Virus genome (UHGV): UHGV-0045429 | Source of the DNA: a virus | Length of the DNA stretch: 19,258 bases | Reading direction: 5' to 3' (one strand) | Part shown: piece by piece, positions 4,400-19,258 of the stretch | Position numbering within the stretch: the stretch's first letter is position 1 | How the letters are laid out: the number at the start of each line of letters is the position of its first letter | The notes under the pieces: model-generated | Databases searched by the model: none | What the model was told of the DNA's origin: nothing | Seen by the model: only the letters and a program-made list of their open reading frames with translations | Position numbers and translations under genes: made by a program

Positions 4400-4406
4400 A
4401 ATAACC

Positions 4407-5105: not shown

Positions 5106-5135
5106 AAACCCTCCGGTAAAAAGGTGCCCATCGTG

Positions 5136-5155
5136 GGAGATGGGCAAATACCACG
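5136..5155 (-). terminator. Terminator-like hairpin just upstream of the first early-left gene
   Basis: On the minus-strand transcript: GCCCATC-TCCCAC-GATGGGC followed by ACCTTTTTA (7-bp stem plus U-rich tail) immediately 5' of the RBS of the 64-aa ORF. Confidence 0.35.
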
Positions 5156-5182
5156 CGGCACACACTGCAATTAATCACATCT

Positions 5183-5246
5183 GCAAGCGCACTCCGCCTG
5201 TTTCACACCTGTCACCCATAACTGGTAAGTGAAGGAGTGCGCTTGC
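5183..5246. repeat. 13-bp perfect inverted repeat with 38-nt spacer inside the ORF-poor leader
   Basis: GCAAGCGCACTCC at 5183-5195 and its reverse complement GGAGTGCGCTTGC at 5234-5246; arms extend by a further 5 bp with a bulge. Confidence 0.5.
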
Positions 5247-5940: not shown

Positions 5941-5996
5941 AACTTAGGTTAACTTAAGTTTTCAATCAAGATTTATTTTGTAGAAAAACCTAAGTT
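5941..5996. promoter_or_regulatory. Left operator-like region (OL analogue): inverted AACTTAGGTT / AACCTAAGTT half-sites downstream of the repressor gene
   Basis: AACTTAGGTT at 5941-5950 and its exact reverse complement AACCTAAGTT at 5987-5996. The 10-mer AAAACCTAAG (5985-5994) recurs exactly at 6521-6530 in the repressor/cro intergenic region. Confidence 0.45.
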
Positions 5997-6046
5997 TATG
6001 GGTGTAAAAACATAACTCATTGATTTTATGAGTTGAATATTTTGGT

Positions 6047-6463
6047 TTATTTTACTCGGGTTTTTCTTTTTCTCTTCTCTGCTTCTAGCAGTTCTTGCAG
6101 GCGGATGCTGTTGTTTTCGTTACGAGCGCGTAACTCTTCGAGGAAGCCGATCTGATCTGACTCGGGAAGTGAATCAAAGAGTTCTAATAACTCTAATTGA
6201 ATATCAGTTAATTCTCTTTGCTCTTCTAATGGTACCGGCGCGCCCGGAATCTGGGCCTCATCACCAAAAAGAAGCCATGCTGGCGCGCACTGCAGGCCTT
6301 TGCTAAGGGCGAACAACCTCTTTCCCGCCGGTTGAGTTTCATCGCGTTCCCACTGGGAAATAGTTACGTGTGCGACCTTTACCAGTTTGCCCAAGGCAGC
6401 CTGGGAAAGGTTTAGCTCTTTGCGTCGCCTTAAAAGACGAGTACCGAAGGTTTCTTTATCCAT
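6047..6463 (-). CDS. DicA/RacR-type prophage repressor (XRE-family HTH, no S24 peptidase domain)
   Basis: 138-aa ORF; N-terminal HTH (LNLSQAALGKLVKVAHVTISQWERDETQP), LFALSKGLQCAPAWLLFGDE and LELLELFDSLPESDQ closely parallel E. coli DicA as I recall it. No recognisable RBS before the ATG. Confidence 0.85.
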   Translation of the reverse strand: MDKETFGTRLLRRRKELNLSQAALGKLVKVAHVTISQWERDETQPAGKRLFALSKGLQCAPAWLLFGDEAQIPGAPVPLEEQRELTDIQLELLELFDSLPESDQIGFLEELRARNENNSIRLQELLEAEKRKRKTRVK

Positions 6464-6484
6464 ATTAGGTAATTCTAAATTCTC

Positions 6485-6531
6485 TTGACTTAAATTTCCC
6501 TACGATCTAGTTTCCTTAGGAAAACCTAAGG
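6485..6531 (+). promoter_or_regulatory. Right operator/promoter region (OR analogue) between divergent repressor and cro-like genes
   Basis: TTGACT at 6485-6490; perfect palindrome CCTTAGG-AAAA-CCTAAGG at 6514-6531, overlapping the AAGGAG RBS of the DicC-like gene. Confidence 0.5.
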
Positions 6532-6541
6532 AGATTTAATC

Positions 6542-6766
6542 GTGCTTAAAAAAGACGCAGTTATTTTTTTTGGAAGCAAATCAAAATTGGCAAAGGCTGC
6601 TGGTGTTGCTGCTTCATCAGTTTCTGTATGGGGCGACCTCGTGCCAGAGAAAAATGCGATGAGACTACAAATCGCTTCTGATGGTGCCCTGCGATATGAC
6701 CCCGAGGTCTATGACAAACATGCTAAAGCAAAACGGTCAGGAGAATTGAATGATGAAAATCAATGA
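6542..6766 (+). CDS. DicC/YdaS-like Cro-type regulator
   Basis: 74-aa ORF, GTG start with AAGGAG 8 nt upstream; MLKKDAVIFFGSKSKLAKAAG...GDLVPE...MRLQ...YDPEVYD closely matches E. coli DicC from memory; divergent from the repressor. Confidence 0.8.
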   Translation: MLKKDAVIFFGSKSKLAKAAGVAASSVSVWGDLVPEKNAMRLQIASDGALRYDPEVYDKHAKAKRSGELNDENQ

Positions 6767-7229
6767 GATCAAGTTACTGGCTATCGAGCTTGAAGAGTGG
6801 GCGATGAAGGATGGCAGGAAAGGGGGCTGGAAAAAGATTGTCCCACTGATTACCTCGCATCACTACGGTGATTTGCTGGATAGCCTGGCAGATATCGTGG
6901 ACCCGTCAGAGTATGTGCGCCGCCTGCATAACAACACGCAGATCATCCAGCGGGCATTTCGAAATGACACGCCGAACTATCGTGGTCAGGCAGCTGCGCT
7001 TGCGCCAGCAATCAGGGCTGCGATGGATGCAGAGCTGGCTGGTCAGCATGACTTACATAACCTGGTGGCCATTGCTAACCGCGAGTGCATCGAGGCGACC
7101 AGTGCGGTGCTGACTGGTAAGCCAATGCAGGTAATCCGCAAAGAAACGTCAGAGGCAATTCAGGCACTGGCCGATCTCATCCCCGGCGTCAGCATCCAGT
7201 TTAACCATATTGGTCCGCGCGCGGCGTAA
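6750..7229 (+). CDS. YdaT-like protein (third gene of the racR-ydaS-ydaT type immunity cluster)
   Basis: 159-aa ORF overlapping the DicC-like stop by 17 nt; AGGAG RBS; central NTQIIQRAFRNDTP...LAPAIRAAMD segment resembles the YdaT family as I recall it. Confidence 0.6.
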   Translation: MMKINEIKLLAIELEEWAMKDGRKGGWKKIVPLITSHHYGDLLDSLADIVDPSEYVRRLHNNTQIIQRAFRNDTPNYRGQAAALAPAIRAAMDAELAGQHDLHNLVAIANRECIEATSAVLTGKPMQVIRKETSEAIQALADLIPGVSIQFNHIGPRAA

Positions 7230-7241
7230 CAGGAGGCTCCC

Positions 7242-7484
7242 ATGCTTGCCCAGGAATTAGTAGACCGCATGAAAAATGCGATGAAGCACAAAGTACCGGC
7301 GGAGACAGTCGATCGCAGCGCTGAACTGATTCCGGGGATGAAATACCGCAACGAACGCGGACGCATGGTGACGGTAATGAGAGTTTCTCATCTTCGGGTT
7401 ATGTACCGATACGAAGGTTATCAGGACATCTGCGAGACAGGCCGGAGAGAGTTTGATTTGAAATTTAAGAAGGTGGAATTGTGA
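7242..7484 (+). CDS. Hypothetical phage protein (80 aa)
   Basis: ATG at 7242 with AGGAGG 5 nt upstream; tightly packed between the YdaT-like and HNH genes. Confidence 0.6.
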   Translation: MLAQELVDRMKNAMKHKVPAETVDRSAELIPGMKYRNERGRMVTVMRVSHLRVMYRYEGYQDICETGRREFDLKFKKVEL

Positions 7485-7486
7485 GT

Positions 7487-7840
7487 ATGAATTGCTGTGG
7501 CTGCCACAATCCTTTGGATGAGGACGAAATCTATAAACTTGCAGAGCGGTGCGGAATTTCGATCTGTGACCGTTGCGCGGGTAAGGTCGAACGCAGCTAT
7601 AACGAATGGCACGGTGGTCCTGGATATTTCCCCAAACCCCCTAAACACCCCCGCAAAAATATCTCACCGGGAGTGAGATTAAAAATTTATCGAAGGGATA
7701 AATACCGCTGTAAATATTGCGGCACCAGTGATGATCTCACCATTGATCATATTCAGCCTGTCTCTAAAGGCGGCGGAAATGAAGATGAAAATCTCCAGAC
7801 CTTATGTCGTGCCTGTAACCGCAGGAAGGGGGCGTCATGA
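7487..7840 (+). CDS. HNH endonuclease
   Basis: Cys-rich N-terminus plus H-N-H core ...DLTIDHIQPVSKGGGNEDENLQTLCRACNRRKG; ATG 7487 preferred over GTG 7481 because AGGTGGA lies 9 nt upstream. Confidence 0.8.
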   Translation: MNCCGCHNPLDEDEIYKLAERCGISICDRCAGKVERSYNEWHGGPGYFPKPPKHPRKNISPGVRLKIYRRDKYRCKYCGTSDDLTIDHIQPVSKGGGNEDENLQTLCRACNRRKGAS

Positions 7841-8772
7841 GCTCACTAATCAAGTTACTCGATCGCCCAGTGGCGTATCAACCAGCATTTGCACAGCTCA
7901 GGGCGGGAAAAGTGAAATCAGGCCCGTCGGCTGCTGTCCTGCTTTCCCAGTTCGTCTACTGGCATAACCGCATGGGCGGTGAGTGGATGTACAAGACGCG
8001 TGAAGACATAAAAAAAGAGACGGGGTTAAGCCGTGATGAGCAGGAAACAGCGAGAAAAAGACTGGTTGCTCTGGGGGTACTACAGGAAGAACTACGAGGG
8101 GTTCCTGCGACTGTACATTACAAAATTAATACCGGGCGTCTGGAGGTACTTTTGCTGGCTCCAGACCAGGCAGAATCACAGATGGGTGCAACGCCGCCAA
8201 CTAGAAAGCGGCAATCCCGCCAACTGGATGGCGGCAACACACCCAACAAGATGGCGGTAACCCCGCCAACAAGCAGGGGGGAATACCGCCAGCAAGATGG
8301 TGGTGATCCCGCCAACTTTCCTACAGGAGATTACACAGAGAGTACTCAGGAGATCACTCAAAGGGCCGGAGATGAATTTTCTGTGGATAACTTTTCTGAC
8401 GAGGACGTGAAATTTTCAGAGTGGTTCTTTGCTCGGGTCGTCGAGATGCATGAGCGAGCTGCTGAGTTTGACGGAACCATGTCACGCCCCGATGAACCTG
8501 ACTGGACTGAATGGGTGGGCGAGGTTCGCCTGCTGCGGGAAGAGCAGGGGTGCGATCACACGCAGATGCGCCGCATGGTTGAGCGCATTCAGGGGGATCC
8601 GTTCTGGTGCCCAAGGGTAAAAACCGCGCACGCCCTGCGGGACAAGTGGGCTGACCTGGTGGTGAGACTGTGCCCAGTGAGCTTGGCTGATCCGCCGCGA
8701 CAATCCACTTTCGACGATGAATATTACAAAAACGATTCTGAGTCCGCTGCGAAAGCAGGTTTCAGGATCTGA
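7837..8772 (+). CDS. Phage replication initiator (lambda O-like replisome organiser) with origin iterons inside the coding sequence
   Basis: 311-aa ORF, ATGA overlap with the HNH stop; N-terminal winged-helix-like segment (LLSQFVYWHNRMGGEWMYKTREDIKKETGLSRDEQETARKRLVALGVL); tandem DNA repeats in the middle of the gene encode the repetitive linker. Confidence 0.65.
   Translation: MSSLIKLLDRPVAYQPAFAQLRAGKVKSGPSAAVLLSQFVYWHNRMGGEWMYKTREDIKKETGLSRDEQETARKRLVALGVLQEELRGVPATVHYKINTGRLEVLLLAPDQAESQMGATPPTRKRQSRQLDGGNTPNKMAVTPPTSRGEYRQQDGGDPANFPTGDYTESTQEITQRAGDEFSVDNFSDEDVKFSEWFFARVVEMHERAAEFDGTMSRPDEPDWTEWVGEVRLLREEQGCDHTQMRRMVERIQGDPFWCPRVKTAHALRDKWADLVVRLCPVSLADPPRQSTFDDEYYKNDSESAAKAGFRI
8190..8320. 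repeat. Iteron-like direct repeats (putative replication origin)
   Basis: CCCGCCAAC at 8216-8224, 8262-8270 and 8308-8316 (plus CCGCCAAC at 8194-8201), each preceded by GATGG(C/T)GG at 8227, 8250 and 8295; unit about 22-24 bp; CCGCCA/TGGCGG gives internal dyad symmetry. Confidence 0.6.
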
Positions 8773-8800
8773 GAGAACTGAATTTAACCTGGAGAATTTT

Positions 8801-9463
8801 ATGGAAACCATTTTAGACGTACTGAAAGCGATGGAAAAAGCGACTGCCCGTGAAATTGCGGCGCGCATGAAAATTGAGCCGGCGGCGGTGATCGGGATGC
8901 TGCGTGAGCACGAAGAGCGTAATGAGGCTGTTCAGGCTAACGGGTACTGGAAAGTTGCCACCGGGGAAGTTAAATCACAGCCAAAAGCGATCAGTTCTTT
9001 CAGCAAAGCGCCGGTAAGTGTATCAGTCAGCGACGTCATCGCATTACTGGCGGAACATGGGCCACAGACATCCCTTGAGCTGGCAACACTGGCAGGTATT
9101 GAGTCAAAACGTGTGGCGCCAATGCTGACTCACCACATGACAAAAGGGCGGATCATCCGCGAAAAAGTAGGCAGCAAGTTTGTTTATTCGGTGCCGGCCA
9201 CTGCGTCAGTGAAAAACAAAAGCTCTGCACCACGGGAACCGGAAACATCAACACCACTGGTACCAGAAAAATCTGTCACTGAAATTGTTGAGGAAATCCC
9301 CGCTTTCGTCAGCCGTCCTGATGATCTGCTGATCCCAACGGTACGCGGTATCTCAAGTGAAATTCGGCGCACAAAAGCGAAGCTGGCTAACCTGGAAAAA
9401 CTTCGTGAAGCCGTTCGCAGCATTCGCAAACACGGCGCGCTGATGCAGGAGCTGGCGCAATGA
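8801..9463 (+). CDS. Hypothetical protein with two tandem winged-helix-like segments
   Basis: Start taken at METILDVLKAMEK (GGAG RBS); two similar blocks (ILDVLKAMEKATAREIAARMKIEPAAVIGML... and VIALLAEHGPQTSLELATLAGIESKRVAPML...). No Walker motif, so not a DnaC/P-type helicase loader. Confidence 0.6.
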   Translation: METILDVLKAMEKATAREIAARMKIEPAAVIGMLREHEERNEAVQANGYWKVATGEVKSQPKAISSFSKAPVSVSVSDVIALLAEHGPQTSLELATLAGIESKRVAPMLTHHMTKGRIIREKVGSKFVYSVPATASVKNKSSAPREPETSTPLVPEKSVTEIVEEIPAFVSRPDDLLIPTVRGISSEIRRTKAKLANLEKLREAVRSIRKHGALMQELAQ

Positions 9464-9684
9464 AACAGTCTGAGTTACCGCGCTGTCCGGCCTGCGGAAA
9501 TATGCCCGAATACGCGCTAAAGCCAAACCATATGGGATGGGTATGGGGTGGATTGAAATGTCCGTATGACCATTACCGCGTGAATTTGGATGGTCCAGCC
9601 GGTAGCCGCGTGCAGGCAGAAAAAAAGCTGGCGCCACAGTGGATTGAACTGGTCGAGAAAGCTAATCAGGAGAAATCAGCGTGA
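9460..9684 (+). CDS. Small zinc-ribbon protein, possibly Lar-type restriction alleviation family
   Basis: 74-aa ORF; AGGAG RBS; LPRCPACGN...GLKCPYDHY (C-x2-C ... C-x3-H) pattern. Family call is tentative. Confidence 0.5.
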   Translation: MKQSELPRCPACGNMPEYALKPNHMGWVWGGLKCPYDHYRVNLDGPAGSRVQAEKKLAPQWIELVEKANQEKSA

Positions 9685-10043
9685 AACCAACCTACGAAGA
9701 ACTGACAGTACAGCTCGCTAACGCCGAGAGCAAGTGCAGGGAGCTGGTGGTGGAATGTTCGACAATCAAAGCCATGAGCGATTGCCTGTCTGAAGAGCTG
9801 CGTGGTTATGAATCTGATGGGGCGTTTGAAGGACCGAAGATGCATCTACTGTGGTGGAAAGCAGAAACTCCCGCGACCGACGCTTTCCTGGCTGAAGTGC
9901 GGGCGCAGGTCCACAAGGAAGGTGCTCACTTTGTAGCAAATAGAATGCTGGCCGCCACTCTTTTTGTTTTCGTTATCCTCAATGCACCCGCATGTAACCC
10001 GCTTCGGCGGGTTAGCTTCTTCTATCTGAGATTTTGTTGCTAA
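9681..10043 (+). CDS. Hypothetical protein (N-terminal coiled-coil-like, hydrophobic C-terminus)
   Basis: GTG start with AGGAG 9 nt upstream, overlapping the previous stop. The C-terminal ~15 codons read through hairpin 9996-10013, so the 3' end may be a fusion artefact. Confidence 0.45.
   Translation: MKPTYEELTVQLANAESKCRELVVECSTIKAMSDCLSEELRGYESDGAFEGPKMHLLWWKAETPATDAFLAEVRAQVHKEGAHFVANRMLAATLFVFVILNAPACNPLRRVSFFYLRFCC
9996..10013 (+). terminator. Hairpin AACCCGC-TTCG-GCGGGTT (copy a of a repeated terminator-type stem-loop); weak U-tract
   Basis: Perfect 7-bp stem with tetraloop; identical 18-mer recurs at 17742-17759. Confidence 0.4.
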
Positions 10044-10205
10044 ACGCAGTCTTACCGTTCTATCTGCAGGCATTGAGTAACTAAGTTCAAATGTTACATT
10101 GATCACGTTTTTTAACGTCTCAAAACCTCATTGGTATTGAGTTCCTTTGTGGTAATGATTTTGTTGGATAAAATAGCCAATATCTCAAGGAGTAGGTAAC
10201 CACTA

Positions 10206-10559
10206 ATGATCAATGATGTTAAAAATGCAAAAATTGAAGAATATTTCACCGTTCTAAAAGAAAAGAGCAGACCTCCAAGCAAAGGTGGGAACACAAAGGC
10301 TCTGCATGCCCACTACATTAAAATTGATGGAATGTTATACAGTTTTCTCGCGTTCGGTTCTAAGCAATGGATTTTCAAAACCGACCGAGTATCATTTAAG
10401 TTCGAAATGAACGGCGAATACAGGAATATTCTCCGGGAATCCATTAGCACTATTGATAGCAATGGGGAAGTAGTAATCAGAGGGTTGCGTGGTTTTAGCA
10501 AGAAGATAAGGACTGCTGATACGCGTTTACCAGCATCCAGAAGGGAATGCAGGGATTGA
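10206..10559 (+). CDS. Hypothetical protein (117 aa) in AT-rich cargo cassette
   Basis: ATG at 10206 with AAGGAG upstream; AT-rich codon usage unlike the flanking phage core (by eye); no family recognised. Confidence 0.6.
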   Translation: MINDVKNAKIEEYFTVLKEKSRPPSKGGNTKALHAHYIKIDGMLYSFLAFGSKQWIFKTDRVSFKFEMNGEYRNILRESISTIDSNGEVVIRGLRGFSKKIRTADTRLPASRRECRD

Positions 10560-10712
10560 ATATGTAATTTGTGTCGAATTTGCAATCATTAGCTAGCAAA
10601 TTGAATAAGTAACATAATAATTTTCATGAATAATATGAATAAAAAACCAGGATGACATACTAGGTGTTTCCGGTATCTTATCTATATATTATTTACGTTC
10701 AAGTGACTTTAA

Positions 10713-10874
10713 ATGACTGGCCAGCAACTTACTGAGCTCGAAATCGCTTATGGTGGGGAAGCTTACTCAGATAATGAAATTGATGCGAAAACAGTAGCTA
10801 AATCACTAAAGGATGTTGAACATTCAATGTCAGTGCATTCAAACGCCCTTCAAAGCGACGCTGATAAGTCTTAA
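10713..10874 (+). CDS. Small acidic ORF (53 aa) below the ORF-track threshold
   Basis: ATG 10713 to TAA 10872-10874 (MTGQQLTELEIAYGGEAYSDNEIDAKTVAKSLKDVEHSMSVHSNALQSDADKS), ending directly before terminator b; weak RBS. Confidence 0.3.
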   Translation: MTGQQLTELEIAYGGEAYSDNEIDAKTVAKSLKDVEHSMSVHSNALQSDADKS

Positions 10875-10889
10875 AGTTCGTGTACTGCT

Positions 10890-10912
10890 AACCCGCTACG
10901 GCGGGTTTTTTT
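10890..10912 (+). terminator. Rho-independent terminator (copy b): AACCCGC-TACG-GCGGGTT plus T7
   Basis: Perfect 7-bp GC-rich stem, tetraloop, run of seven T. Confidence 0.75.
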
Positions 10913-10968
10913 ATGCCCCTTACCAATAAATAATTAACCTGAATTATTGTAAATTATTGAGGTTTGTT

Positions 10969-11607
10969 ATGGGTGGCATTTTCGATGAATCATGGTCTGA
11001 GCAATTTACTCAACGCGTTGAGGCTTTGCGTAAACTGGATGATCAGTCCGTTACTCAACCGCTTTTCAGAGAAAAAGCGGATCTGATTTTTACTCAAATG
11101 GCTGACCGTGTTCGTTCGCGTACGCGACAGCAGCTCGGAGAAATCGACGTTAGCGGGATAACATTTGATTACGCAATCCGCTATTACGTTAATCACGACA
11201 CTGGTGATCCGGTTCTGGATCACCTTGTGTCCAGGGTAGGGCCATTCTGTGACCAGATGAAGATCAGCACGGAGGCGTACGGCACAGCGGCGTTCTGCTG
11301 CGCGCTCATGATGTTGAAAGGCGAGTTGCGTATAGCGTATGCATTTTTCAGCATGCTGATGCGCCCGCTCGTTTCTGCGTACAGGTATAACACCGACGCG
11401 AAACGACGTGGCTCTGCTGGTGGGCGCCCGACAAATCCACTTAAAAACGAGGCACTGGAACTGGCGCGGGTATTTACAAAATCCTATCCTGATTCAACGA
11501 TGGTGGCTGTTGTTAACGCCGTCATTTCTGACCTTGAATCTCACTACGTTGGCACTCCGTCAGCACGCACAATAAAGCGCTGGATTCAGCAGGACCGGAA
11601 AAAATAA
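10969..11607 (+). CDS. Hypothetical protein with C-terminal resolvase-type HTH-like segment (putative DNA-binding regulator)
   Basis: ATG 10969 (GAGG RBS; the track start at 10957 is a TTG). C-terminal GGRPTNPLKNEALELARVF...TPSARTIKRWIQQ resembles the GRP-led HTH of serine recombinases, but no recombinase catalytic domain is present. Confidence 0.55.
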   Translation: MGGIFDESWSEQFTQRVEALRKLDDQSVTQPLFREKADLIFTQMADRVRSRTRQQLGEIDVSGITFDYAIRYYVNHDTGDPVLDHLVSRVGPFCDQMKISTEAYGTAAFCCALMMLKGELRIAYAFFSMLMRPLVSAYRYNTDAKRRGSAGGRPTNPLKNEALELARVFTKSYPDSTMVAVVNAVISDLESHYVGTPSARTIKRWIQQDRKK

Positions 11608-11614
11608 CCCCTCC

Positions 11615-11660
11615 GGACAAAACCTTCTTTTGTCGGCATAACCTGGTTTTGTCCGTTTTA
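11615..11660 (+). terminator. Terminator-like hairpin: GGACAAAACC ... GGTTTTGTCC followed by GTTTTATC
   Basis: 10-bp perfect inverted repeat (11615-11624 / 11645-11654) downstream of the 212-aa ORF. Confidence 0.5.
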
Positions 11661-11700
11661 TCATCAAAAAAAATACGTAGAATCCGTCTCACACTTTTTG

Positions 11701-11745
11701 TTGAGACATCTCCCGGATGAGGTGATACTGTTTATATATACAGTA
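11701..11745 (+). promoter_or_regulatory. SOS-regulated promoter: near-consensus LexA box TACTGTTTATATATACAGTA overlapping the -10 element
   Basis: CTG-N10-CAG at 11728-11743; 19/20 match to the E. coli LexA consensus TACTGTATATATATACAGTA; TTGAGA (-35, 11701-11706) and GATACT (-10, 11724-11729) with 17-bp spacing. Confidence 0.65.
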
Positions 11746-11773
11746 TTTGGTCTCTGAATTATCGGGAGATAAT

Positions 11774-11974
11774 ATGCAAATAACTAATGAATTAGTGCCT
11801 GGTGCCTCGGCCCACACAGGACCAGTTTTAATTCAACTGGTGGCGGGTGAAGTGCAAGGTGGCTTTATTTTAAGAGATGATGAATTTGTCACATCTATCT
11901 CCACACTAAATGAAACAAGAATTATGGCCGGATTAGACCCCGCGCCTTTTACCCGATCCCTAACTGATTTATAA
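11774..11974 (+). CDS. Small protein (66 aa) under the LexA box; candidate SOS-induced antirepressor
   Basis: ATG 11774 with GGGAGA RBS, 28 nt downstream of the LexA box; MQITNELVPGASAHTGPVLIQLVAGEVQGGF... No family recognised; function inferred from context only. Confidence 0.5.
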   Translation: MQITNELVPGASAHTGPVLIQLVAGEVQGGFILRDDEFVTSISTLNETRIMAGLDPAPFTRSLTDL

Positions 11975-12036
11975 TAATCACTCGCGAGCGTGAACAACTC
12001 GCAGCTGAGTAACACTGCGCCAACCGGAAATAAACG

Positions 12037-12351
12037 ATGGCGCGTAAAAAATCGTATATAACCAAAGCCGAGCAACAGCACCTCGATCGCGTAGCGTCGT
12101 TGGGTTGTTGTGTCTGCAAAAATCTTGGTTACCCCGACTCTCCAGCGGGGATTCATCATATCCGAACCGGGCAGGGTGCAAGCCAGCGCTCCAGCCATTT
12201 CGAAACTCTGCCGTTATGCGCTGCCCACCACCAGACGGGTGGCTATGGCATTGCTTATCACGCTGGCCCTGAGATATGGGCGAAAAAATACGGCACCGAA
12301 ACTGAGCTATTAATTCAGGTTACGTCAGATTTAAACGGGGACTGGTCATGA
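12037..12351 (+). CDS. YbcO-like nin-region protein (putative nuclease, Cys/His-rich)
   Basis: 104-aa ORF directly upstream of and overlapping rusA, as ybcO-rusA in DLP12; CCVCKN...HHIR...PLCAAHH metal-binding-like pattern. Confidence 0.6.
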   Translation: MARKKSYITKAEQQHLDRVASLGCCVCKNLGYPDSPAGIHHIRTGQGASQRSSHFETLPLCAAHHQTGGYGIAYHAGPEIWAKKYGTETELLIQVTSDLNGDWS

Positions 12352-12707
12352 CCCGTTACCCCGTAACTCCAATCGGCAAACCCCGAATGACAAGAGCCGA
12401 CAAATGGAAGCAGCGCCCGCCGGTGCTCCGTTATCGTGTTTTCTGCGACGAGGTGCGCCTGCATGAAATCGTTCTGCCTGAAAGCGGCGCCCACGTTATT
12501 TTTGTTCTGCCAATGCCAGCGAGCTGGAGCCAGAAAAAACGCGCCAGCATGAACGGACAGCCTCACCAGCAAAAACCGGATATAGACAACCTCACCAAAT
12601 CCCTCATGGATGCCATTTACGACGACGACGCCCACATTTGGGACGTCCGTGCATCAAAAATCTGGGGTGATGAAGGCGCGATTATTATTCAGGAGGGCAA
12701 GGCGTGA
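12348..12707 (+). CDS. rusA: RusA-family Holliday junction resolvase
   Basis: 119-aa ORF; ...KPDIDNLTKSLMDAIYDDDAHIWD... matches the RusA acidic catalytic region as I recall it. Confidence 0.8.
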   Translation: MTRYPVTPIGKPRMTRADKWKQRPPVLRYRVFCDEVRLHEIVLPESGAHVIFVLPMPASWSQKKRASMNGQPHQQKPDIDNLTKSLMDAIYDDDAHIWDVRASKIWGDEGAIIIQEGKA

Positions 12708-14245
12708 TGCCCTTAACATACGGATCCGTATGCAGCGGAATTGAGGCAGCGAGTGTGGCGTGGGAGGTATTGGGCTGGCGGCCGTCATGGTTTTCTCAGT
12801 TCGATCCGGAACACAATTACAAAAACGGTCCTGATTTCCCGTCTGCGGTGCTGGCGCATCACTGGCCGCACGTAAAAAACCTTGGCGATATGACAAAAAT
12901 CGCCGCAGCAATCCGGCTCGGAGAAATTGAAGCGCCCGACGTTCTGGTAGGTGGTACTCCCTGCCAGGCATTCAGCATTGCTGGACTGCGTAATGGCCTG
13001 ACGGATTCACGCGGCCAACTAACCCTCGCTTTTGTAGAACTGGTAAACGCAATTGATGAAAAACGAAGAGAACAGGGAAAACCACCCGTCATTGTCGTCT
13101 GGGAAAATGTCCCCGGAGTATTCAGCAGCAGAGATAACGCTTTCGGATGTTTTCTTGCAGGGCTTGCCGGCGAAAGCCGTGAACTGGAATCACCAGGGCG
13201 AAAATGGACAAACGCTGGTTATGTGCTGGGACCAGAAAGGGCTGTCTGCTGGCGAGTGCTCGACGCTCAATTTTTCGGAGTGGCCCAACGACGCCGCCGT
13301 GTGTTTGTTATCGCAAGCGCTAGAGGGGATATCGATCCCGCAAAAATACTTTTTGAGTCCGAAGGCATGCGCCGGGATACTCCGCCGCGCAGAGAAACGG
13401 GGGAGATCGTTGCCGCCCTTATTGCAAACGGCGTTGGAGTGTGTGGCGCAGACGATAATCAGGGGCAGGCAGGGCACCTGATTGCCATGGCGCACGGACA
13501 GGCAGGGGCAGAAATTAAAACGGATGATTCCGCGCCTACGCTTACCTGTAACCATGAAGCGCCTATTGTTTTTAGCTGTAATGGACACGCATCGTTTACG
13601 CCGGGAGTCAGTGCTCTGCGAACTAAATCAGGCGCAGACCATGAAACGCTGGCTGTTCATGGTACGCAAGATCCCGACACTTTAAAGAACCTGGCACATA
13701 CGCTGGGTCGAAACCATGGGCAAGAGAATGCCGTTGCCTACTGTCTCCAGCATGCACAAATTAACCGGGCAGATAACGCTGGCCCACAGGGTAAAGGATG
13801 GCAAGAAGAATGCAGATTCACTCTGGATTCTCGTTCTTGTGCTGATGCAGTCGCTTATGCCTTCAAGGCCGGGCAGGGCGCAAAAGCGGGTGGCATTGGC
13901 TGGGCAGAGGAACAATCCCCGACACTGACGGCCGCCAGCAGTGGATCGAATTTATCCCCTTCAGTGGTGAAAAATATGGCCGTTCGCCGCCTTACTCCTG
14001 TCGAATGTGAACGCCTGCAGGGCTTCCCCGATAACCACACTTTAATCCCCCGTGATAAGCGTAAGCAGATTACTGCTGATGAGTACGCATACGCGCGCCA
14101 CCACAACCCAAAAATAACCGCAGAGGAAGCCTACAGGCTGGCGAAGGATGGTCCGCGCTATAAGGCCATTGGTAACAGCATGGCCGTACCGGTTATGCGC
14201 TGGATAGGAAGGCGAATCTCTAACGCTCTGGAGCAGACAATATGA
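12707..14245 (+). CDS. Orphan DNA (cytosine-5) methyltransferase
   Basis: Motif I-like YGSVCSGIEAA, motif IV GGTPCQAFSIAG, motif VI VVWENVPG, QRRRRVF, C-terminal RRLTPVECERLQGFPDNHT and GNSMAVPV; large variable region between. AGGAGGG RBS; start overlaps the rusA stop. No adjacent restriction endonuclease ORF. Confidence 0.9.
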   Translation: MPLTYGSVCSGIEAASVAWEVLGWRPSWFSQFDPEHNYKNGPDFPSAVLAHHWPHVKNLGDMTKIAAAIRLGEIEAPDVLVGGTPCQAFSIAGLRNGLTDSRGQLTLAFVELVNAIDEKRREQGKPPVIVVWENVPGVFSSRDNAFGCFLAGLAGESRELESPGRKWTNAGYVLGPERAVCWRVLDAQFFGVAQRRRRVFVIASARGDIDPAKILFESEGMRRDTPPRRETGEIVAALIANGVGVCGADDNQGQAGHLIAMAHGQAGAEIKTDDSAPTLTCNHEAPIVFSCNGHASFTPGVSALRTKSGADHETLAVHGTQDPDTLKNLAHTLGRNHGQENAVAYCLQHAQINRADNAGPQGKGWQEECRFTLDSRSCADAVAYAFKAGQGAKAGGIGWAEEQSPTLTAASSGSNLSPSVVKNMAVRRLTPVECERLQGFPDNHTLIPRDKRKQITADEYAYARHHNPKITAEEAYRLAKDGPRYKAIGNSMAVPVMRWIGRRISNALEQTI

Positions 14246-14877
14246 TGACCCCACGACAAAAACGAGCTCACAAATCAGCACTGGAACATGCGGCAGCCGC
14301 ACCGAATAAGCGCTGGCTGGGGAAATCAATACTGCTCACCGGTATTCAGTCAGCCTGGATCAAATCGCTACTCTGTGTTTGGGGTGAAAGTATTCGCGGT
14401 GGAATGGCACCAGGAACGCCGAAAGGCCACGCGTGCTGGCGGTCGCTAAAGGGTATGCGCTGGTCCGATAAATCGCTCGAGCGTTTTACAGAGGCACTGA
14501 CTCAGGCGAGAGGTGAGGGATTTAAAGGCGAGCTGGCGTTAAAACGTGCACACGCGATTCTCTGGCCCACAAAACCGGTTAGCGTTATCGACGAGGCTAT
14601 AACGGACGATGATGCAGATTTTATGGAAGCGTGCGTGCTGGAGGCGTTTGAAACAACGGATCCGGTTTACGTTATTGGGGTGAGCTACTACACGACGAGG
14701 AAAAAAATCTCGGACCTGACCCGGGATATTCAGCAGATAGCCCCCAGGCTGACTCCGGATGAGGCAAGAAAGCGCGTGCGCTGGTGTGTTGAAATATTCG
14801 GGGCGCGCGTGTATCTGGAGGCACGCCGTCAGTTACACGCTGATTTACAGAAATCAGAATCTGGCGGGAAAATATGA
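14242..14877 (+). CDS. Putative late-gene antiterminator (Q-like); assignment from position and size
   Basis: 211-aa ORF overlapping the MTase stop; GGAG RBS; sits where Q lies in lambdoid genomes (after the nin/rusA block). Family membership not confirmed by any motif. Confidence 0.45.
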   Translation: MMTPRQKRAHKSALEHAAAAPNKRWLGKSILLTGIQSAWIKSLLCVWGESIRGGMAPGTPKGHACWRSLKGMRWSDKSLERFTEALTQARGEGFKGELALKRAHAILWPTKPVSVIDEAITDDDADFMEACVLEAFETTDPVYVIGVSYYTTRKKISDLTRDIQQIAPRLTPDEARKRVRWCVEIFGARVYLEARRQLHADLQKSESGGKI

Positions 14878-15037
14878 TTTTTGAAATAGAAAATAAGCCG
14901 AATTAATTCAATAAAAATATATAATTACAAATGCCAACATGATTGCATTTGTGTTGGTTATAGTAATTGATTTGTTATATGAAAATGAAATGCTTATAAC
15001 AATCCGCGAAGAATAAAATTAATATATCGAGGACATA

Positions 15038-15334
15038 ATGAAAGAACTATCAGCAAAAGATTTACTACATAAATATTCAAGCCCGCTTGATTCAGTAAGC
15101 CTATTTAACGCAATGCATCTCGCTGGTTTAATTGAAGTAAAGGAATATATTTCCTCGACAGGAAGTGGTGAGATTAAGACCTATCGATCGCTAACTGAGA
15201 GCGGTTTGAAGTATGGGATCAATAAAAGATCTAGTTATAGTGATGCAACTGACTTAAAGTTTTTTCCTTCAAACTTCCATGAATTGTTGGTATTGGTATC
15301 AAAGGAGATTTTGAAGCATTCAGAGATGCTTTAA
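15038..15334 (+). CDS. Hypothetical protein (98 aa) in AT-rich cargo
   Basis: ATG 15038 with GAGGA RBS; preceded by a 160-bp AT-rich promoter-like region directly after the Q-like gene. Confidence 0.5.
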   Translation: MKELSAKDLLHKYSSPLDSVSLFNAMHLAGLIEVKEYISSTGSGEIKTYRSLTESGLKYGINKRSSYSDATDLKFFPSNFHELLVLVSKEILKHSEML

Positions 15335-15415
15335 GGTTTTGATTGAAATCGATGTAGTGGAAAAGAAAACCTCGGCCTGGCAACCGGGGTTCTATAGCGC
15401 GCAAACTTTACCTTT

Positions 15416-15628
15416 TTAGCGTGATTTTTTTCGTTTGAAAAACTCGTAAATTTCGATGCCAACAATAGCGATGGCGTAAAAAGGCCAAAGAAAAGAGGTT
15501 CTAACCGTATCCAGCAGGTCAAATTCCATATCGAGTATTCGATCCGCATGAACCAACAGTGCGAACATCACGATAAATCCCGCGACGTTTAAGGCTAGGT
15601 AAAGATAGAGACTCATGGCTAAATCCAT
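15416..15628 (-). CDS. Small hydrophobic (membrane) protein, convergent with the 98-aa ORF
   Basis: 70-aa ORF; two predicted hydrophobic helices (LYLYLALNVAGFIVMFALLV and FLWPFYAIAIVGIEI) and basic C-terminus KRKKSR; weak RBS. Confidence 0.45.
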   Translation of the reverse strand: MDLAMSLYLYLALNVAGFIVMFALLVHADRILDMEFDLLDTVRTSFLWPFYAIAIVGIEIYEFFKRKKSR

Positions 15629-15812
15629 TTATTAAGGTTTGCTGTGAGTCTACGTGCGATAACCACACAATTAAAAATTGGTATTACAGATCGATTTATC
15701 TTTATCGATCGTTGAAAACGATCGTCATGACACAAATAGCTTAGTGATTGATTGTTATTTAATCAGTTGGAGCCAATTATTTAGTAATTAGTGCTTATTT
15801 TATTAAGCGGCA

Positions 15813-15840
15813 TTGAAAACGAGCCATATTTATTGATAAT
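15813..15840 (+). promoter_or_regulatory. Sigma70-type promoter: TTGAAA (-35), 16-bp spacer, GATAAT (-10)
   Basis: TTGAAA at 15813-15818 and GATAAT at 15835-15840; predicted start about 15847. Confidence 0.4.
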
Positions 15841-15847
15841 TACCTCA

Positions 15848-15935
15848 TGCTTGGCAGAGCTGCGCCACGATGGCAGCGACGATAAGCGAACAATTTGAAC
15901 ATAACGAGAACCCCGCCAGCGCGGGGTTTTTGCTT
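15848..15935 (+). ncRNA. Candidate ~90-nt small RNA or late-leader transcript (promoter to intrinsic terminator, no credible ORF)
   Basis: Only a 12-codon ORF without RBS lies between the promoter and terminator; internal GCTGC...GCAGC stem. Entirely a sequence-based prediction. Confidence 0.3.
15909..15935 (+). terminator. Rho-independent terminator: CCCCGC-CAGC-GCGGGG plus T5
   Basis: Stem 15911-15916 / 15921-15926 followed by TTTTT at 15927-15931. Confidence 0.7.
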
Positions 15936-15946
15936 TCCGGCGATCC

Positions 15947-15989
15947 GACAGGGGTATTCGCGAACGTGCTACGGCACAGTACCCCTGTC
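15947..15989. repeat. 10-bp perfect inverted repeat GACAGGGGTA ... TACCCCTGTC (23-nt spacer)
   Basis: Arms at 15947-15956 and 15980-15989, immediately downstream of the terminator. Confidence 0.45.
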
Positions 15990-16175
15990 AGATCGTCGTT
16001 ATGGTTACTTCTATATGTCAGTTTAGGCCGACATCATTTGTGCCTATCCTTCTGGTCTATTGGATGAGTCAAACGTACCTTGAATGAGGATTGTAGGTGC
16101 CAGCCCGTAAGCCCTGCGGCATGGGGCTTAGTCGAAAAAACACCTCTTTTTTGCAACTTTTTATCACGTTTTCCC

Positions 16176-16223
16176 GTGACAAGATCCTGTTTACTGTTAG
16201 AATCACTCCACATGATTCATGTG
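16176..16223 (+). promoter_or_regulatory. Promoter of the two-gene operon with operator-like palindrome
   Basis: GTGACA (-35, 16176-16181), 16-bp spacer, extended -10 TGtTAGAAT (16195-16203); palindrome CACATG-ATT-CATGTG at 16209-16223 at the predicted start site. Confidence 0.4.
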
Positions 16224-16280
16224 ATGTGAATCTTTTAAAAAAAATAAAAACACATCTATTTCAACGAGTAAGCTCAAAAA

Positions 16281-17045
16281 ATGCAGGCTCAACCCAAGAC
16301 TAAACACCAAGAGTTGGTCGAGACGCTATCATTATATATAGACTCGCGAACCCCGTTAGAAGAACCTCTTTTGGGTGAAATCTTTCGCGATATCAATAAA
16401 CAGTCCGGTGCGTCTCGTGCGTATCTCATGGCTTTGTGGATGGAAGTTCAGAACAGACATGATGAGACAGTGGAATGGTATCTAGAGGCGATAGCTACTT
16501 CTGGTGAGCTCGCTTCTGTTGTCGCAGGTAACTATCTGAGTTATCTGAGTTGCTCAGCGCACAATCTTTTTCACAGAACAGAATTGTTCCGATTGGTAGA
16601 TATATATTGTACTAAGCGGATAAGAAAAATGGCCAGGAATGCAGCATTTTGCATGGGAAATGACCGGCTTGTTAACCGATTCACTGTGATGATGAAGGCT
16701 TTACTCGACGGCCAAGAGCGGGAAGAAATTGAGCGTGAGGGGGCAAAAATGGTGGAAGCTATTGTTACTTTTAAAGAAGCCACTAAGCTAACTTCATCTG
16801 AAATCCAGCAGTTGTGTGATTCAGCCGAACAGATTGCAAATAGCCACGGCGTGAATTGCGCTGGTGTTGAATATTTTCTGAGTGGTGGATATGACAACGC
16901 CATAATCCTATTTGCAGAAACCAGCGACGCTAGCACACTTACCACTATGAACATGGAACTCATAGGTTTGCTTGCTGATGATGCCTATATCGATCGTCCA
17001 TTTACCTCATGGTTTAAGAGCGCAGATATGAAGGATAGGATCTAA
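16281..17045 (+). CDS. Hypothetical protein (254 aa), first gene of cargo operon; no recognisable catalytic motif
   Basis: ATG 16281; stop TAA overlaps the start of the downstream gene (TAATG); lower GC than the phage core by eye; no Walker or nucleotidyltransferase motif. Confidence 0.7.
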   Translation: MQAQPKTKHQELVETLSLYIDSRTPLEEPLLGEIFRDINKQSGASRAYLMALWMEVQNRHDETVEWYLEAIATSGELASVVAGNYLSYLSCSAHNLFHRTELFRLVDIYCTKRIRKMARNAAFCMGNDRLVNRFTVMMKALLDGQEREEIEREGAKMVEAIVTFKEATKLTSSEIQQLCDSAEQIANSHGVNCAGVEYFLSGGYDNAIILFAETSDASTLTTMNMELIGLLADDAYIDRPFTSWFKSADMKDRI

Positions 17046-17446
17046 TGAGCGTATCAGGTCAAGATTTCATTGATTTTGCAGAGAAATGTCTCGATTTCGG
17101 TGATGAGATAGGCTTCAGGAACGTAGTTGGACGCTCCTACTATGGTGTTTACCATGAGATCTGCAGTAAACTTGAGCATTGCTATGTATTGACCTCTCAT
17201 GAGGGGGTGCGTCAGTATCTTATGAGCTCTTCACAGTGTAAAAATGAGCCGTTTGATAAAGCCGGGCTGAGGAGGATTGGTGTTTTCCTTCATAGTCTTC
17301 ACGTGCAAAGAAAGTGGGCTGATTACACACTTCAGCGCGATTTGGTTAAAACTGATGCTGAGTCGGCGCTCAATACTGCGAAACAAGTAATGGATGAAAT
17401 TAAGGCGTTGCATGAGGCAGTTTACCCTCCTCAGCCAGCAGCATAA
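17045..17446 (+). CDS. HEPN-like protein (133 aa) with N-terminal R-x6-H motif; candidate RNase toxin/effector
   Basis: GRSYYGVYH (R30 at 17132-17134, H37 at 17153-17155) fits the HEPN Rx4-6H signature; AGGA RBS; translationally coupled to the upstream gene; followed by terminator c. Confidence 0.65.
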   Translation: MSVSGQDFIDFAEKCLDFGDEIGFRNVVGRSYYGVYHEICSKLEHCYVLTSHEGVRQYLMSSSQCKNEPFDKAGLRRIGVFLHSLHVQRKWADYTLQRDLVKTDAESALNTAKQVMDEIKALHEAVYPPQPAA

Positions 17447-17460
17447 CTCACCAATTATTG

Positions 17461-17488
17461 AAACCCGCTACGGCGGGTTTTCTTTTTC
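17461..17488 (+). terminator. Rho-independent terminator (copy c): AACCCGC-TACG-GCGGGTT plus T-rich tail
   Basis: 18-mer identical to copy b (10890-10907); followed by TTTTCTTTTTC. Confidence 0.75.
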
Positions 17489-17541
17489 GCTTCATCAATT
17501 CCTGCTACGATTCCCTGTCTTTTACTGATGGGGATAGGGAT

Positions 17542-17709
17542 ATGAAGAAAGTTCTTGTTGTTTTATTGGTGTCACTTTTCTCACTGACAGCAACGGCAGC
17601 AAACAAGCCATGCTCAGGTAAGAAAGGCGGAATATCGCATTGTTCGGGTGAAAAGTTTGTTTGCAATGATGGCTCTATCAGCAAGTCTAAGAAGGTTTGT
17701 CAGAAATAG
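17542..17709 (+). CDS. Small secreted Cys-rich, Lys-rich protein (55 aa) with signal peptide
   Basis: Start at MKKVLVVLLVSLFSLTATAA (signal-peptide-like) then NKPCSGKKGGISHCSGEKFVCNDGSISKSKKVCQK (4 Cys). The track ORF from 17458 reads through terminator c and is an over-extension. Confidence 0.55.
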   Translation: MKKVLVVLLVSLFSLTATAANKPCSGKKGGISHCSGEKFVCNDGSISKSKKVCQK

Positions 17710-17740
17710 TTATTAATAAATAGCACTCGCCATCAAAATC

Positions 17741-17763
17741 AAACCCGCTTCGGCGGGTTTTTC
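17741..17763 (+). terminator. Rho-independent terminator (copy d): AACCCGC-TTCG-GCGGGTT plus T5
   Basis: 18-mer identical to copy a (9996-10013). Confidence 0.75.
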
Positions 17764-17828
17764 ACTCTCTAACGGATATGTTATTTTCATGCAATAAGAG
17801 CGATTAGTAAGATGCTGCTGGGGAGAAC

Positions 17829-17990
17829 ATGGATTCAACGGACGACGAAGAGAAACGCATAGAATTTGAAAAATTCATCATTGAAAGGTTTGGTGATACG
17901 GTTGACCTTCGCAGGGCGAAGCATGGCAATAACGGATATATTTCATGGGAAGCGGCGGTTGCTTGGGTTGTCTGGCAGGAGCGCTCATAG
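17829..17990 (+). CDS. Small ORF (53 aa) below the ORF-track threshold
   Basis: ATG 17829 to TAG 17988-17990, GGGAG 3 nt upstream; MDSTDDEEKRIEFEKFIIERFGDTVDLRRAKHGNNGYISWEAAVAWVVWQERS. Reads more coherently than the overlapping 83-aa track ORF. Confidence 0.4.
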   Translation: MDSTDDEEKRIEFEKFIIERFGDTVDLRRAKHGNNGYISWEAAVAWVVWQERS

Positions 17991-18319
17991 CACCATGAAA
18001 CAACGTCTACCTCTAGCGGGCGCTGATTTATTATGGCGCTGCCCGGAGCGTCCCGTCATTCACTATGGACTCCCACTTGGCAACGTCGTTTTAGAATTTG
18101 ATTTTGGTCCGCTATGAGCTGTGAGTTCAACTGATGGACGCAACACACTTATTGAACCGCTCTGCAGGATGGCTCGGAACCTGGATTATTATTCCAGAGA
18201 TTAGCGCTGGCTTTTTTCTCGCTTTCAGGCAGCAGAATGAGGCCAATTTTTAACACCCGACCATGGCTTGCACGGCCGGGTAATGGCTAAGAATGCGCGT
18301 AAACAAAAGGTTATGCCAC

Positions 18320-19258
18320 TTATGTGCCTAAATGTTTATTAAAGAATGGAATAATCTCCGATAGCGCTTGTGCCGTCGCTTCCGGACGATCATACAGATC
18401 ATAGTGAGATACCCCTTTCACAACCTGCAGCGTCTTCTCAACGGAGCGCGCGCGCTGATAAAGTTCATAACCGTCGCGATAAGAACCAAAACCACCAGGA
18501 ACATCGCCAATAACAATATGTAATGGTTGTATCAGTAGCTTTTCCGTAAAGGCAAAAGCATCCCAGTTTAAGGCCGGTGCGGTGCTGGTAAGTCGCAGTT
18601 TGTTAGGCGAGCCTGGCTTTTGCCCGCGCGGGGTCGTGTAGTAATCAACGGCCTCAATGAGGTCGATATCGTTGATGTTCGCATTCGCCAACGCTTCTGC
18701 ATTGTCAGGAATATAACCGACAACAAGAGCAGCGGCTCCCCGAGCTTCAGCAGTACGCTGTTTACCCAGCGCGTCAATCGTTCTGAGCGCGGCATCCGGA
18801 CTGGAATCCCCTTCACGCATAATGCGCCCATAATTGGCGGCAACCACAGTGGCAACGGCTTTGAAACGGTGATCAATGGTAGCGGCGCTAACGGCATATC
18901 CACCGCCGCCACAAACGCCTAAAACCCCAATACGATCTTCATCCACGTAGGCTAAAGTCACCAGATAGTCTATCGCGCAGCGAAAGTCTTCCACGCGGAT
19001 GGATGGATTTTCGCTAAAGCGTGGCTCACCCCCGCTTTCACCCTGGGTAGAGGCATCGAAAGCAAGAGTAATAAATCCAGCTTCAGTTAGCTTCTGGCCG
19101 TAGACTGCGCCAGATGTCTGTTCTTTACAACTGCTGATAGGATGGGCGCAAACAATCGCCGGGTATTTCTGGTTGGCATCAAATCCCTCAGGTAAGCGGA
19201 GAGTGGCGGCAACTTGCCAGCTGTTGTGCCGGAATGAAACGAGTTGTTCATGAGACAT
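18320..19258 (-). CDS. Alpha/beta hydrolase of the dienelactone-hydrolase type (Cys nucleophile)
   Basis: 312-aa ORF; nucleophile elbow GVLGVCGGGGYA (G-x-C-x-G-G). The start codon lies at the last three bases of the window, so the upstream region is not visible. Confidence 0.8.
   Translation of the reverse strand: MSHEQLVSFRHNSWQVAATLRLPEGFDANQKYPAIVCAHPISSCKEQTSGAVYGQKLTEAGFITLAFDASTQGESGGEPRFSENPSIRVEDFRCAIDYLVTLAYVDEDRIGVLGVCGGGGYAVSAATIDHRFKAVATVVAANYGRIMREGDSSPDAALRTIDALGKQRTAEARGAAALVVGYIPDNAEALANANINDIDLIEAVDYYTTPRGQKPGSPNKLRLTSTAPALNWDAFAFTEKLLIQPLHIVIGDVPGGFGSYRDGYELYQRARSVEKTLQVVKGVSHYDLYDRPEATAQALSEIIPFFNKHLGT

Follow-up and report, generated by a model that had tools for sequence, protein, structure and literature searches.

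A two-gene cassette carried by temperate phages

The viral genome UHGV-0045429 (19,258 nucleotides, analysed at full length and referred to here as the window) carries two plus-strand open reading frames (ORFs) encoding proteins of 254 and 133 amino acids, hereafter gene 1 and gene 2. A sequence-only reading of this DNA, made without database searches, had described the two ORFs as a translationally coupled cargo operon whose second gene is HEPN-like, and both are present as it described, overlapping as TAATG with one nucleotide in common. It had also noted a base composition lower in GC than that of the phage core, which is borne out by values of 0.42-0.44 for the operon and 0.53-0.55 for the core region at 12-14.5 kb. 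Here we show that gene 2 has a HEPN fold, that it is accompanied by gene 1 in nearly all phage loci in which it is found, and that the pair occupies different accessory positions in temperate phages and prophages. On balance it is probable that this cassette is a two-protein module of the toxin or abortive-infection type, in which a HEPN RNase would be restrained by a partner with TPR-like repeats.

Gene 1 and gene 2 form one unit and behave as an obligate pair, which recurs in over 80 temperate-phage genomes. A relative of gene 1 lies directly 5' of gene 2, abutting or overlapping it, in 81 of 83 phage loci; one of the two unpaired loci is cut by the end of its contig, and the other has a partner of the same size that is too diverged for the model. 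The divergence of the two proteins is correlated (Spearman 0.73), with gene 1 the more diverged member in 56 of 57 loci. A 71-kb viral contig (L069, IMGVR_UViG_2599185261_000001) carries two diverged pairs some 4 kb apart, at positions 1171-2368 and 5222-6405 of that contig, which suggests that they are paralogous modules with different specificities.

The cassette behaves as a mobile accessory element (a 'moron') of temperate phages, being placed in several different accessory slots across intact relatives. It is found between a Q-type antiterminator and the lysis genes (holin/endolysin) in E. coli prophages; other prophages of this species have it in the nin region, where an ImmA/M78 pair is its neighbour. 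In Enterobacter sp. 638 it is flanked by Q on one side and by a HicAB pair plus holin on the other. The nin region also houses the copy of phage Chronis, while that of Klebsiella phage ST405-OXA48phi1.3 adjoins tail genes and that of Pseudomonas phage YMC11/02/R656 lies near the genome end. All carriers seen are temperate phages or prophages, many of them enterobacterial, with one Pseudomonas phage among the annotated carriers. The sequence-only reading had placed the operon where a lambdoid phage should carry its lysis genes; the cassette does lie 3' of Q, and lysis genes directly follow it in intact relatives, but the site is better called a Q-to-lysis cargo slot. The 5,426 complete E. coli genomes searched contained no full-length DNA copy of the cassette in its E. 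coli version, and the sole match of the operon DNA among 50,697 phage records was to a short flank upstream of the operon.

Gene 2 has a HEPN fold with AF0298-like conserved residues

The sole match of the window's gene 2 protein is phrog_5176, a group of unknown function. A profile search of the PDB, built from 18 relatives, recovered the entries 9xbd and 9xbc, each a 'HEPN domain-containing protein' (E=2.4e-9 and 2.1e-8, respectively), together with the UPF0332 protein AF0298 (PDB 2hsb, E=1.2e-4). Structure prediction, which had been suggested as a check for a HEPN-like helical bundle, returned an all-helical AlphaFold2 (AF2) model with a predicted local distance difference test score (pLDDT) of 90.3, in which the four/five-helix up-down HEPN bundle is present. 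The assignment of gene 2 to the HEPN fold is secure. None of the family members reaches the gathering score of the Pfam HEPN family PF05168, the best value being E=0.037 for one of the 18 relatives; one relative (P0002) carries the JGI label 'UPF0332 family'.

The original HEPN call rested on the peptide GRSYYGVYH (R30-x6-H37), which was taken to fit the Rx4-6H signature of HEPN RNases, and whereas the fold has been upheld, the motif has not. The Rx4-6H motif of HEPN proteins sits at the end of helix 3 (Anantharaman 2013). R30-x6-H37 lies in the middle of helix 2 of the AF2 model, and corresponds to the 'RaYYxxxH' helix-2 signature of HEPN proteins of the UPF0332/AF0298 type rather than to the catalytic motif. 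This signature is itself variable, with Tyr at the His position in 9xbd and Ser at the Arg position in AF0298. The Rx4-6H pattern is moreover weak and unspecific, as R76/R77...H83 of gene 2 fit it too. The canonical motif position in gene 2 is R89-KWAD-Y94, which aligns with REESDY of AF0298 and RNRSDY of 9xbd. In AF0298-like HEPN-T proteins the Arg of the motif is kept and the His is lost, and a second conserved His within an insert between helices 2 and 3 has been proposed to be catalytic (Anantharaman 2013); H52 of gene 2 aligns with the insert His of both 2hsb and 9xbd.

Across 64 distinct relatives of gene 2 from viral contigs, with identities down to about 27%, residues E21, R25, H52, R89, D93 and Y94 do not vary. 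It should be noted that these relatives were retrieved with a pattern that included R30, Y32, Y33 and H37, so that the invariance of those four positions is biased. By its fold, signature and motif residues gene 2 can be classified as a HEPN protein of the AF0298/UPF0332-like (HEPN-T) type, and H52, acting with R89, is its likely catalytic His. The mutations R30A and H37A, proposed in the sequence-only reading, would probably hit the wrong residues, and H52A and R89A would be the informative ones.

Gene 1 is predicted to be a TPR-like repeat protein

Gene 1 matches phrog_17809 (E=4e-53), which is likewise of unknown function. Its family is small and uniform: at E<=1e-3 the matches amount to only 78 cluster representatives in 1.84 billion, mostly proteins of about 250-270 amino acids with a few shorter fragments, the remainder being long multi-repeat proteins that match only residues 30-90. 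The AF2 model (pLDDT 89.9) comprises a helical-repeat region at residues 8-140, a long helix, and a C-terminal domain at residues 172-247 that is RimP-N-like alpha/beta, with its elements in the order alpha-beta-beta-alpha-beta. The family profile matches designed PPR/TPR proteins (E=2e-14 to 5e-9) and also IFIT1, and TPR Pfam models match 10 of 53 relatives. Gene 1 is thus modelled as a TPR/PPR-like solenoid followed by a C-terminal alpha-beta-beta-alpha-beta domain.

Conservation across the family is sparse, with only N84, L89, N224, L227 and F245 reaching 80% identity. No enzymatic motif is conserved and no enzymatic match was obtained in Pfam or in profile searches; in particular, there was no nucleotidyltransferase (NTase) match in Pfam, NCBIfam or the PDB. 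Neither a helix-turn-helix nor a winged-helix or other DNA-binding domain was found, and no PADLOC model matches the gene 1 family. The possibility that the C-terminal domain is a degenerate minimal nucleotidyltransferase fold was considered and rejected, as there is no conserved NTase motif, the order of strands and helices differs, and the match to RsfS is weak (E=0.011). Sub-threshold matches of the window proteins in the family scan (TPR_11, RseA_N, DndA/SspA and NifS) were taken as chance noise.

An antisense ORF of 130 amino acids lies within gene 1, and is open too in the E. coli copies (L012/L013, 7527-7919). It is probably a by-product of the conservation of gene 1.

Comparison with known HEPN systems

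The sequence-only reading held that the pair resembles no system that can be named, and this is confirmed across Pfam, NCBIfam, PADLOC 2.0, the PHROGs annotations and the literature searched, none of which gave a named match. In that literature we found no paper describing a pair of a TPR protein with a HEPN-T protein, and searches on PDB 9XBD/9XBC and on 'UPF0332 + HEPN' returned nothing relevant. The effector belongs to a known HEPN clade and the partner is of a new type, a combination that no described system matches. Gene 2 shares with the AF0298-like HEPN-T/UPF0332 proteins (2hsb, 9xbd/9xbc) the helix-2 'RaYYxxxH' signature, the R-x4-Y motif and the conserved His of the helix 2-3 insert. 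However, the classical members of that group are paired with, or fused to, a minimal nucleotidyltransferase, whereas here the partner is a 254-residue TPR protein without an NTase motif.

A functional parallel to the cassette is offered by the type IX retrons. The HEPN protein of these retrons has been modelled on 2hsb, and it was noted that the motif His is missing and that an alternative His is present (Mestre et al.). In Retron-Kva2 the HEPN protein is without Rx4-6H and uses H64 and R122 at the dimer interface; the substitutions H64A and R122A abolish toxicity and defence, and rRNAs and tRNAs are cleaved (2026 preprint). The 245-residue partner of this protein wraps the HEPN domain by means of two alpha-beta-beta-alpha-beta 'HEPN-binding' domains (2026 preprint). 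Type IX retron HEPN proteins and gene 2 are alike in being small, in lacking Rx4-6H while conserving a His and an Arg, and in having 2hsb as best template, and H52/R89 are the putative counterparts of H64/R122. Both systems consist of an overlapping gene pair with a non-enzymatic partner of about 250 amino acids. When the relatives of gene 2 were scanned individually with the PADLOC model HEPN_IX, partial alignments were obtained for the Pseudomonas phage copy (1e-6), the Chronis copy (4e-5) and, marginally, P0014 (0.019), and in the alignment scan 4 of the 18 family members matched. There are also differences from the retrons: the gene order is reversed, the partner coming first in the cassette, and where the retron partner has a helix-turn-helix, msDNA-binding (winged-helix) domain, gene 1 has a TPR solenoid instead. 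No reverse transcriptase was found among the neighbours of the pair in the window or in related loci, and no msr/msd noncoding RNA either, a search of the window with Rfam giving no RNA family. With no reverse transcriptase, no noncoding RNA and no winged-helix partner, the cassette was rejected as a retron.

The cassette was also rejected as a HepT/MntA type VII toxin-antitoxin (TA) system, in which HepT has a canonical RxxxxH motif and MntA is a nucleotidyltransferase, whereas gene 2 lacks the His and gene 1 lacks an NTase domain. Since gene 1 is not a nucleotidyltransferase, it would not be expected to AMPylate Y94. HepS of Gifsy-1 and Tha of S. aureus phages are HEPN nucleases that temperate phages carry in accessory slots; both are constitutive in lysogens and triggered by proteins of incoming phages. 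They provide a functional analogy for the role proposed here, but are single proteins with a canonical Rx4H motif, while the cassette splits effector and putative sensor over two genes. As relatives of the cassette HepS, Tha, Butters gp57r and AbiV were ruled out on architecture, canonical motifs or an RNA antitoxin; for AbiV, whose antitoxin is an RNA (type III), neither the window protein nor its relatives match the PADLOC model. The DefensePredictor system DS-28 has a similar layout (a HEPN protein of 163 amino acids with a 252-residue partner), but BLASTP gave no relationship and its HEPN protein has the canonical motif RNSVAH. Conserved peptides of the cassette family were absent from the supplementary sequences of the DefensePredictor paper.

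Transcription signals, prophage setting and CRISPR spacers

The features of the cassette and its surroundings are collected in Table 1. Promoter-like sites are not in excess in the region (7, against 5.2+/-2.3 in shuffled sequences). However, the block TTTCCCGTGACAAGA...CTGTTAGAAT is invariant in six aligned loci whose proteins are only about 70% identical and whose flanks have diverged, and extended -10 promoter-like elements lie 5' of most of the 64 distinct phage copies. Because this block is invariant in diverged copies, the cassette promoter is a real conserved element that moves with the cassette, in agreement with the earlier description of a coupled, self-promoted cargo operon.

Table 1. 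Coordinates of the cassette and of surrounding features in the window.
Feature	Position	Strand	Details
Gene 1	16281-17045	+	predicted TPR-like partner
Gene 2	17045-17446	+	HEPN fold
Cassette promoter	16176-16203	+	-35 GTGACA, 16-nt spacer, extended -10 TGtTAGAAT; sigma-70-like, 10/12 consensus plus TG
Inverted repeat CACATG-ATT-CATGTG	16209-16223	+	perfect; at predicted transcription start
Inverted repeat GATTCA-N7-TGAATC	16214-16232	+	overlaps the CACATG palindrome; at predicted transcription start
Upstream intrinsic-terminator-like hairpin	15909-15936	+	AACCCCGC-CAGC-GCGGGGTT, then T-run; read from the sequence
Downstream intrinsic terminator	17460-17481	+	9-bp stem, 5 GC pairs, T-rich tail; 14 nt past the gene 2 stop; feature annotated as 17460-17491
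Protospacer	16632-16663	+	within gene 1; ATG protospacer-adjacent motif at 16629-16631; identical to an E. coli type I-E spacer
Q-like late antiterminator	14242-14877	+	phrog_753 'anti-termination protein Q-like', E=4e-54; context, outside the cassette
Hairpin TAAGCCC...GGGCTTA	16108-16155		T-run about 20 nt on; just 5' of the cassette promoter
Antisense ORF	16571-16963	-	130 aa, within gene 1
YdcA-family small protein	17542-17709		55 aa, signal-peptide-like N-terminus; phrog_6000, E=4.7e-26
Bidirectional terminator	17741-17760		3' of the YdcA-like gene
Early-region protein	2531-4435	-	634 aa; phrog_26058, E=7e-203, plus exonuclease-annotated PHROGs
Low-GC small ORF	10206-10559
Low-GC small ORF	10713-10874
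Low-GC small ORF	15038-15334		phrog_6486

The palindrome CACATG-ATT-CATGTG does lie at the predicted start site, where it had been taken to suggest autoregulation, but it is broken by a 1-nt indel in the E. coli copies and absent in others, and is perfect only in the window. It is also statistically unremarkable, nine perfect 6/3 palindromes being present in the window where 4.7 are expected. With the palindrome unconserved and gene 1 lacking a DNA-binding domain, the proposal of autoregulation is not supported. The overlapping repeat GATTCA-N6/7-TGAATC recurs in most close relatives. The fold of the 5' untranslated region is not significant (z=-1.15).

Of the two flanking terminators that had been proposed, the downstream one was recovered, while the upstream hairpin is visible by eye but is missing from the list of the consensus terminator scan. 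Its segment has about 90% identity to Citrobacter phage Chris1 and to one E. coli chromosome, and it may be a tR'-type terminator of the late operon. A further hairpin just 5' of the cassette promoter is kept in the closest (E. coli) copies and not in more diverged ones.

The window, part of contig CABJAD010000001.1 (assembly GCA_902363475.1), carries a lambdoid prophage that is a truncated, decayed remnant. The 5' part of the window contains a chromosomal response regulator and then an integrase; the early region has an O-like replication gene, RusA and a C5 methylase, followed by the Q-like antiterminator. This gene lies 1.4 kb upstream of the cassette, the position that Antiterm/Q genes have relative to it in prophages of E. 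coli and Enterobacter. On the 3' side the cassette is followed by a small YdcA-like gene and then by chromosomal hydrolase, SDR and LysR genes, and in the surveyed region (746-18300) there are no lysis, morphogenesis or structural genes after the cassette. A search for attL/attR direct repeats of at least 11 nt, between 550-800 and 14800-18400, found none.

Other parts of the remnant may also carry cargo. The YdcA-like gene, whose DNA shares 91% identity with a 'YdcA family protein' locus of three E. coli chromosomes, may be one such gene, sited at the edge of the prophage. Additional low-GC stretches (0.37-0.39) occur at 10001-11000 and 15001-15500 of the window, and the small ORFs within them, examples of which are listed in Table 1, may be further accessory genes. 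The 634-residue protein of the early region has no Pfam match.

The carrier phage is a CRISPR target, as spacer matches show. Of the 5,426 complete E. coli genomes, 146 contain one or more of three spacers that match the E. coli cassette copy, at three sites, with 100% identity over 32-33 nt (loci L098-L100 and L012-L015). These spacers lie in type I-E arrays flanked by canonical repeats, and their protospacer-adjacent motifs are AAG or ATG. One of them, L099_sp8, matches the window protospacer at 32 of 32 positions, and there is also a match, with two mismatches, at window positions 17064-17094. Genes elsewhere in this prophage are matched by further spacers of the same arrays. An apparent enrichment of CRISPR spacers on the cassette was discarded, as the arrays had been chosen for matching the cassette and their other spacers match the rest of the prophage; the cassette is not shown to be singled out.

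Proposed function and alternative readings

We consider it rather more probable than any other account that the cassette is an autonomous accessory module of temperate phages, of the toxin or abortive-infection type, composed of a HEPN RNase and a TPR partner that restrains it. According to this model, the cassette would be transcribed in the lysogen from its own conserved promoter, and late transcription antiterminated by Q would run through it as well in intact phages. Gene 1 would bind the HEPN protein, plausibly through its C-terminal domain, and hold it inactive. The TPR-like solenoid would sense a phage-derived ligand, the binding of which would release or activate the RNase. Gene 2 would then, as a dimer, cleave RNA (rRNA, tRNA or mRNA), so that infection aborts or growth is arrested. 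Its non-canonical site would be formed by H52, from the insert between helices 2 and 3, and by R89, where helix 3 ends and a canonical Rx4-6H motif would sit. The most likely reading of gene 2 is an active RNase with an H52/R89 site, because the HEPN protein of type IX retrons provides a precedent. The constant pairing and correlated divergence of the two genes, the TPR-like, non-enzymatic character of gene 1, the HEPN_IX matches of gene 2 relatives and the C-terminal topology that gene 1 shares with the retron HEPN-binding domains count in favour of the model as well. For a defence role the evidence is indirect, consisting of the accessory slots in temperate phages, neighbours such as HicAB and ImmA-like pairs, and the cassette's own promoter. 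A more specific proposal, namely that the cassette represents a new family of prophage abortive-infection systems and a retron-independent cousin of the type IX effector module, in which a TPR protein cages the His/Arg HEPN RNase and frees it on binding a protein of an incoming phage, is possible, though less likely than not.

A number of observations weigh against a caged RNase. At the Rx4-6H position of gene 2 the Arg is kept and invariant, but an equally invariant Tyr takes the place of the His, so that the canonical catalytic His is gone; HEPN domains can serve as binding modules, and some HEPN-T proteins are possibly non-catalytic binders (Anantharaman 2013). The invariance of R30, Y32, Y33 and H37 was selected by the retrieval pattern. 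Taken alone, neither the gene 1 nor the gene 2 protein of the window matches a Pfam, NCBIfam or PADLOC model. The window's own gene 2 does not match HEPN_IX, the link to that model running through partial alignments of distant relatives. In the PADLOC models no sequence similarity was seen between gene 1 and the winged-helix partner of type IX retrons, and the likeness between the retron HEPN-binding domains and the gene 1 C-terminus, both alpha-beta-beta-alpha-beta, is one of secondary-structure order only. Finally, in E. coli draft assemblies (L012:7237-8001, and L015) codon 14 of gene 1 is changed from GAG to TAG while gene 2 is intact and identical. If gene 1 is an antitoxin that cannot be dispensed with, this nonsense allele is awkward, unless translation resumes at codon 31, a TTG that is the next in-frame start past the stop in L012.

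The same allele bears on the idea that the pair is an ordinary TA addiction module that stabilises the prophage, with gene 1 as antitoxin and gene 2 as HEPN toxin, and with no sensing or blocking of phages. The antitoxin-first, overlapping bicistronic layout with its own promoter is what this idea would have us expect, HEPN toxins are common in TA systems, and the cassette adjoins the HicAB TA pair in Enterobacter sp. 638 and has been kept at the edge of a decayed prophage in the window. However, gene 1 is large (254 residues), lacks a DNA-binding domain for classical autoregulation and has a domain of sensor type, the TPR solenoid; a nonsense allele of it exists alongside an intact gene 2; and two diverged copies in one phage, with a fast-evolving partner, fit diversification of specificity better. 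We regard plain addiction as unlikely, although TA and defence roles are compatible and not mutually exclusive. Of much the same low probability, if anything a little lower, is an account in which gene 2 is a non-catalytic HEPN protein that binds nucleotides or RNA and the pair serves the phage, either as a regulator of host or phage RNA or in counter-defence, for instance by sequestering a host signal or inhibiting a host nuclease. The loss of the canonical His and the binding-module role of HEPN domains (Anantharaman 2013) speak for such an account, as do the matches of the gene 1 profile to RNA-binding repeat proteins (designed PPR, IFIT1), the resemblance of the gene 1 C-terminal domain to the ribosome-associated RimP, with its weak RsfS match, and the expectation that late transcription would express the cassette too in intact phages. 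Nevertheless, the invariant polar set E21, R25, H52, R89, D93 and Y94 is typical of an active site, and among characterised relatives the closest one to share this His/Arg arrangement is a toxic RNase with proven activity. Furthermore, the carriers seen are all temperate phages or prophages and the promoter is of lysogen type, and the matches to designed PPR/TPR proteins may reflect consensus-repeat composition only.

It is very improbable that the pair is a conserved late component of lambdoid phages that would, for example, time lysis or control late transcription. Its location directly between antiterminator and holin/endolysin in E. coli and Enterobacter prophages, and 3' of Q in the window, would be consistent with such a role, but most related lambdoid phages are without the pair and the complete E. 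coli genomes searched hold no full-length copy, while the position varies between nin region, tail region and genome end and the cassette carries its own promoter and terminator.

The identification of this cassette illustrates that a search with the Rx4-6H pattern can arrive at the correct fold on mistaken grounds, and then misdirect mutagenesis. If a caged HEPN RNase is indeed encoded here, a compact two-gene immune or toxin module of many enterobacterial temperate phages would join the HEPN-based systems, and the His/Arg HEPN site, so far demonstrated only in type IX retrons, would be seen to work free of a retron and with a different sensor. A modular evolutionary link in which the sensor is swapped and the effector is kept would then become directly testable.

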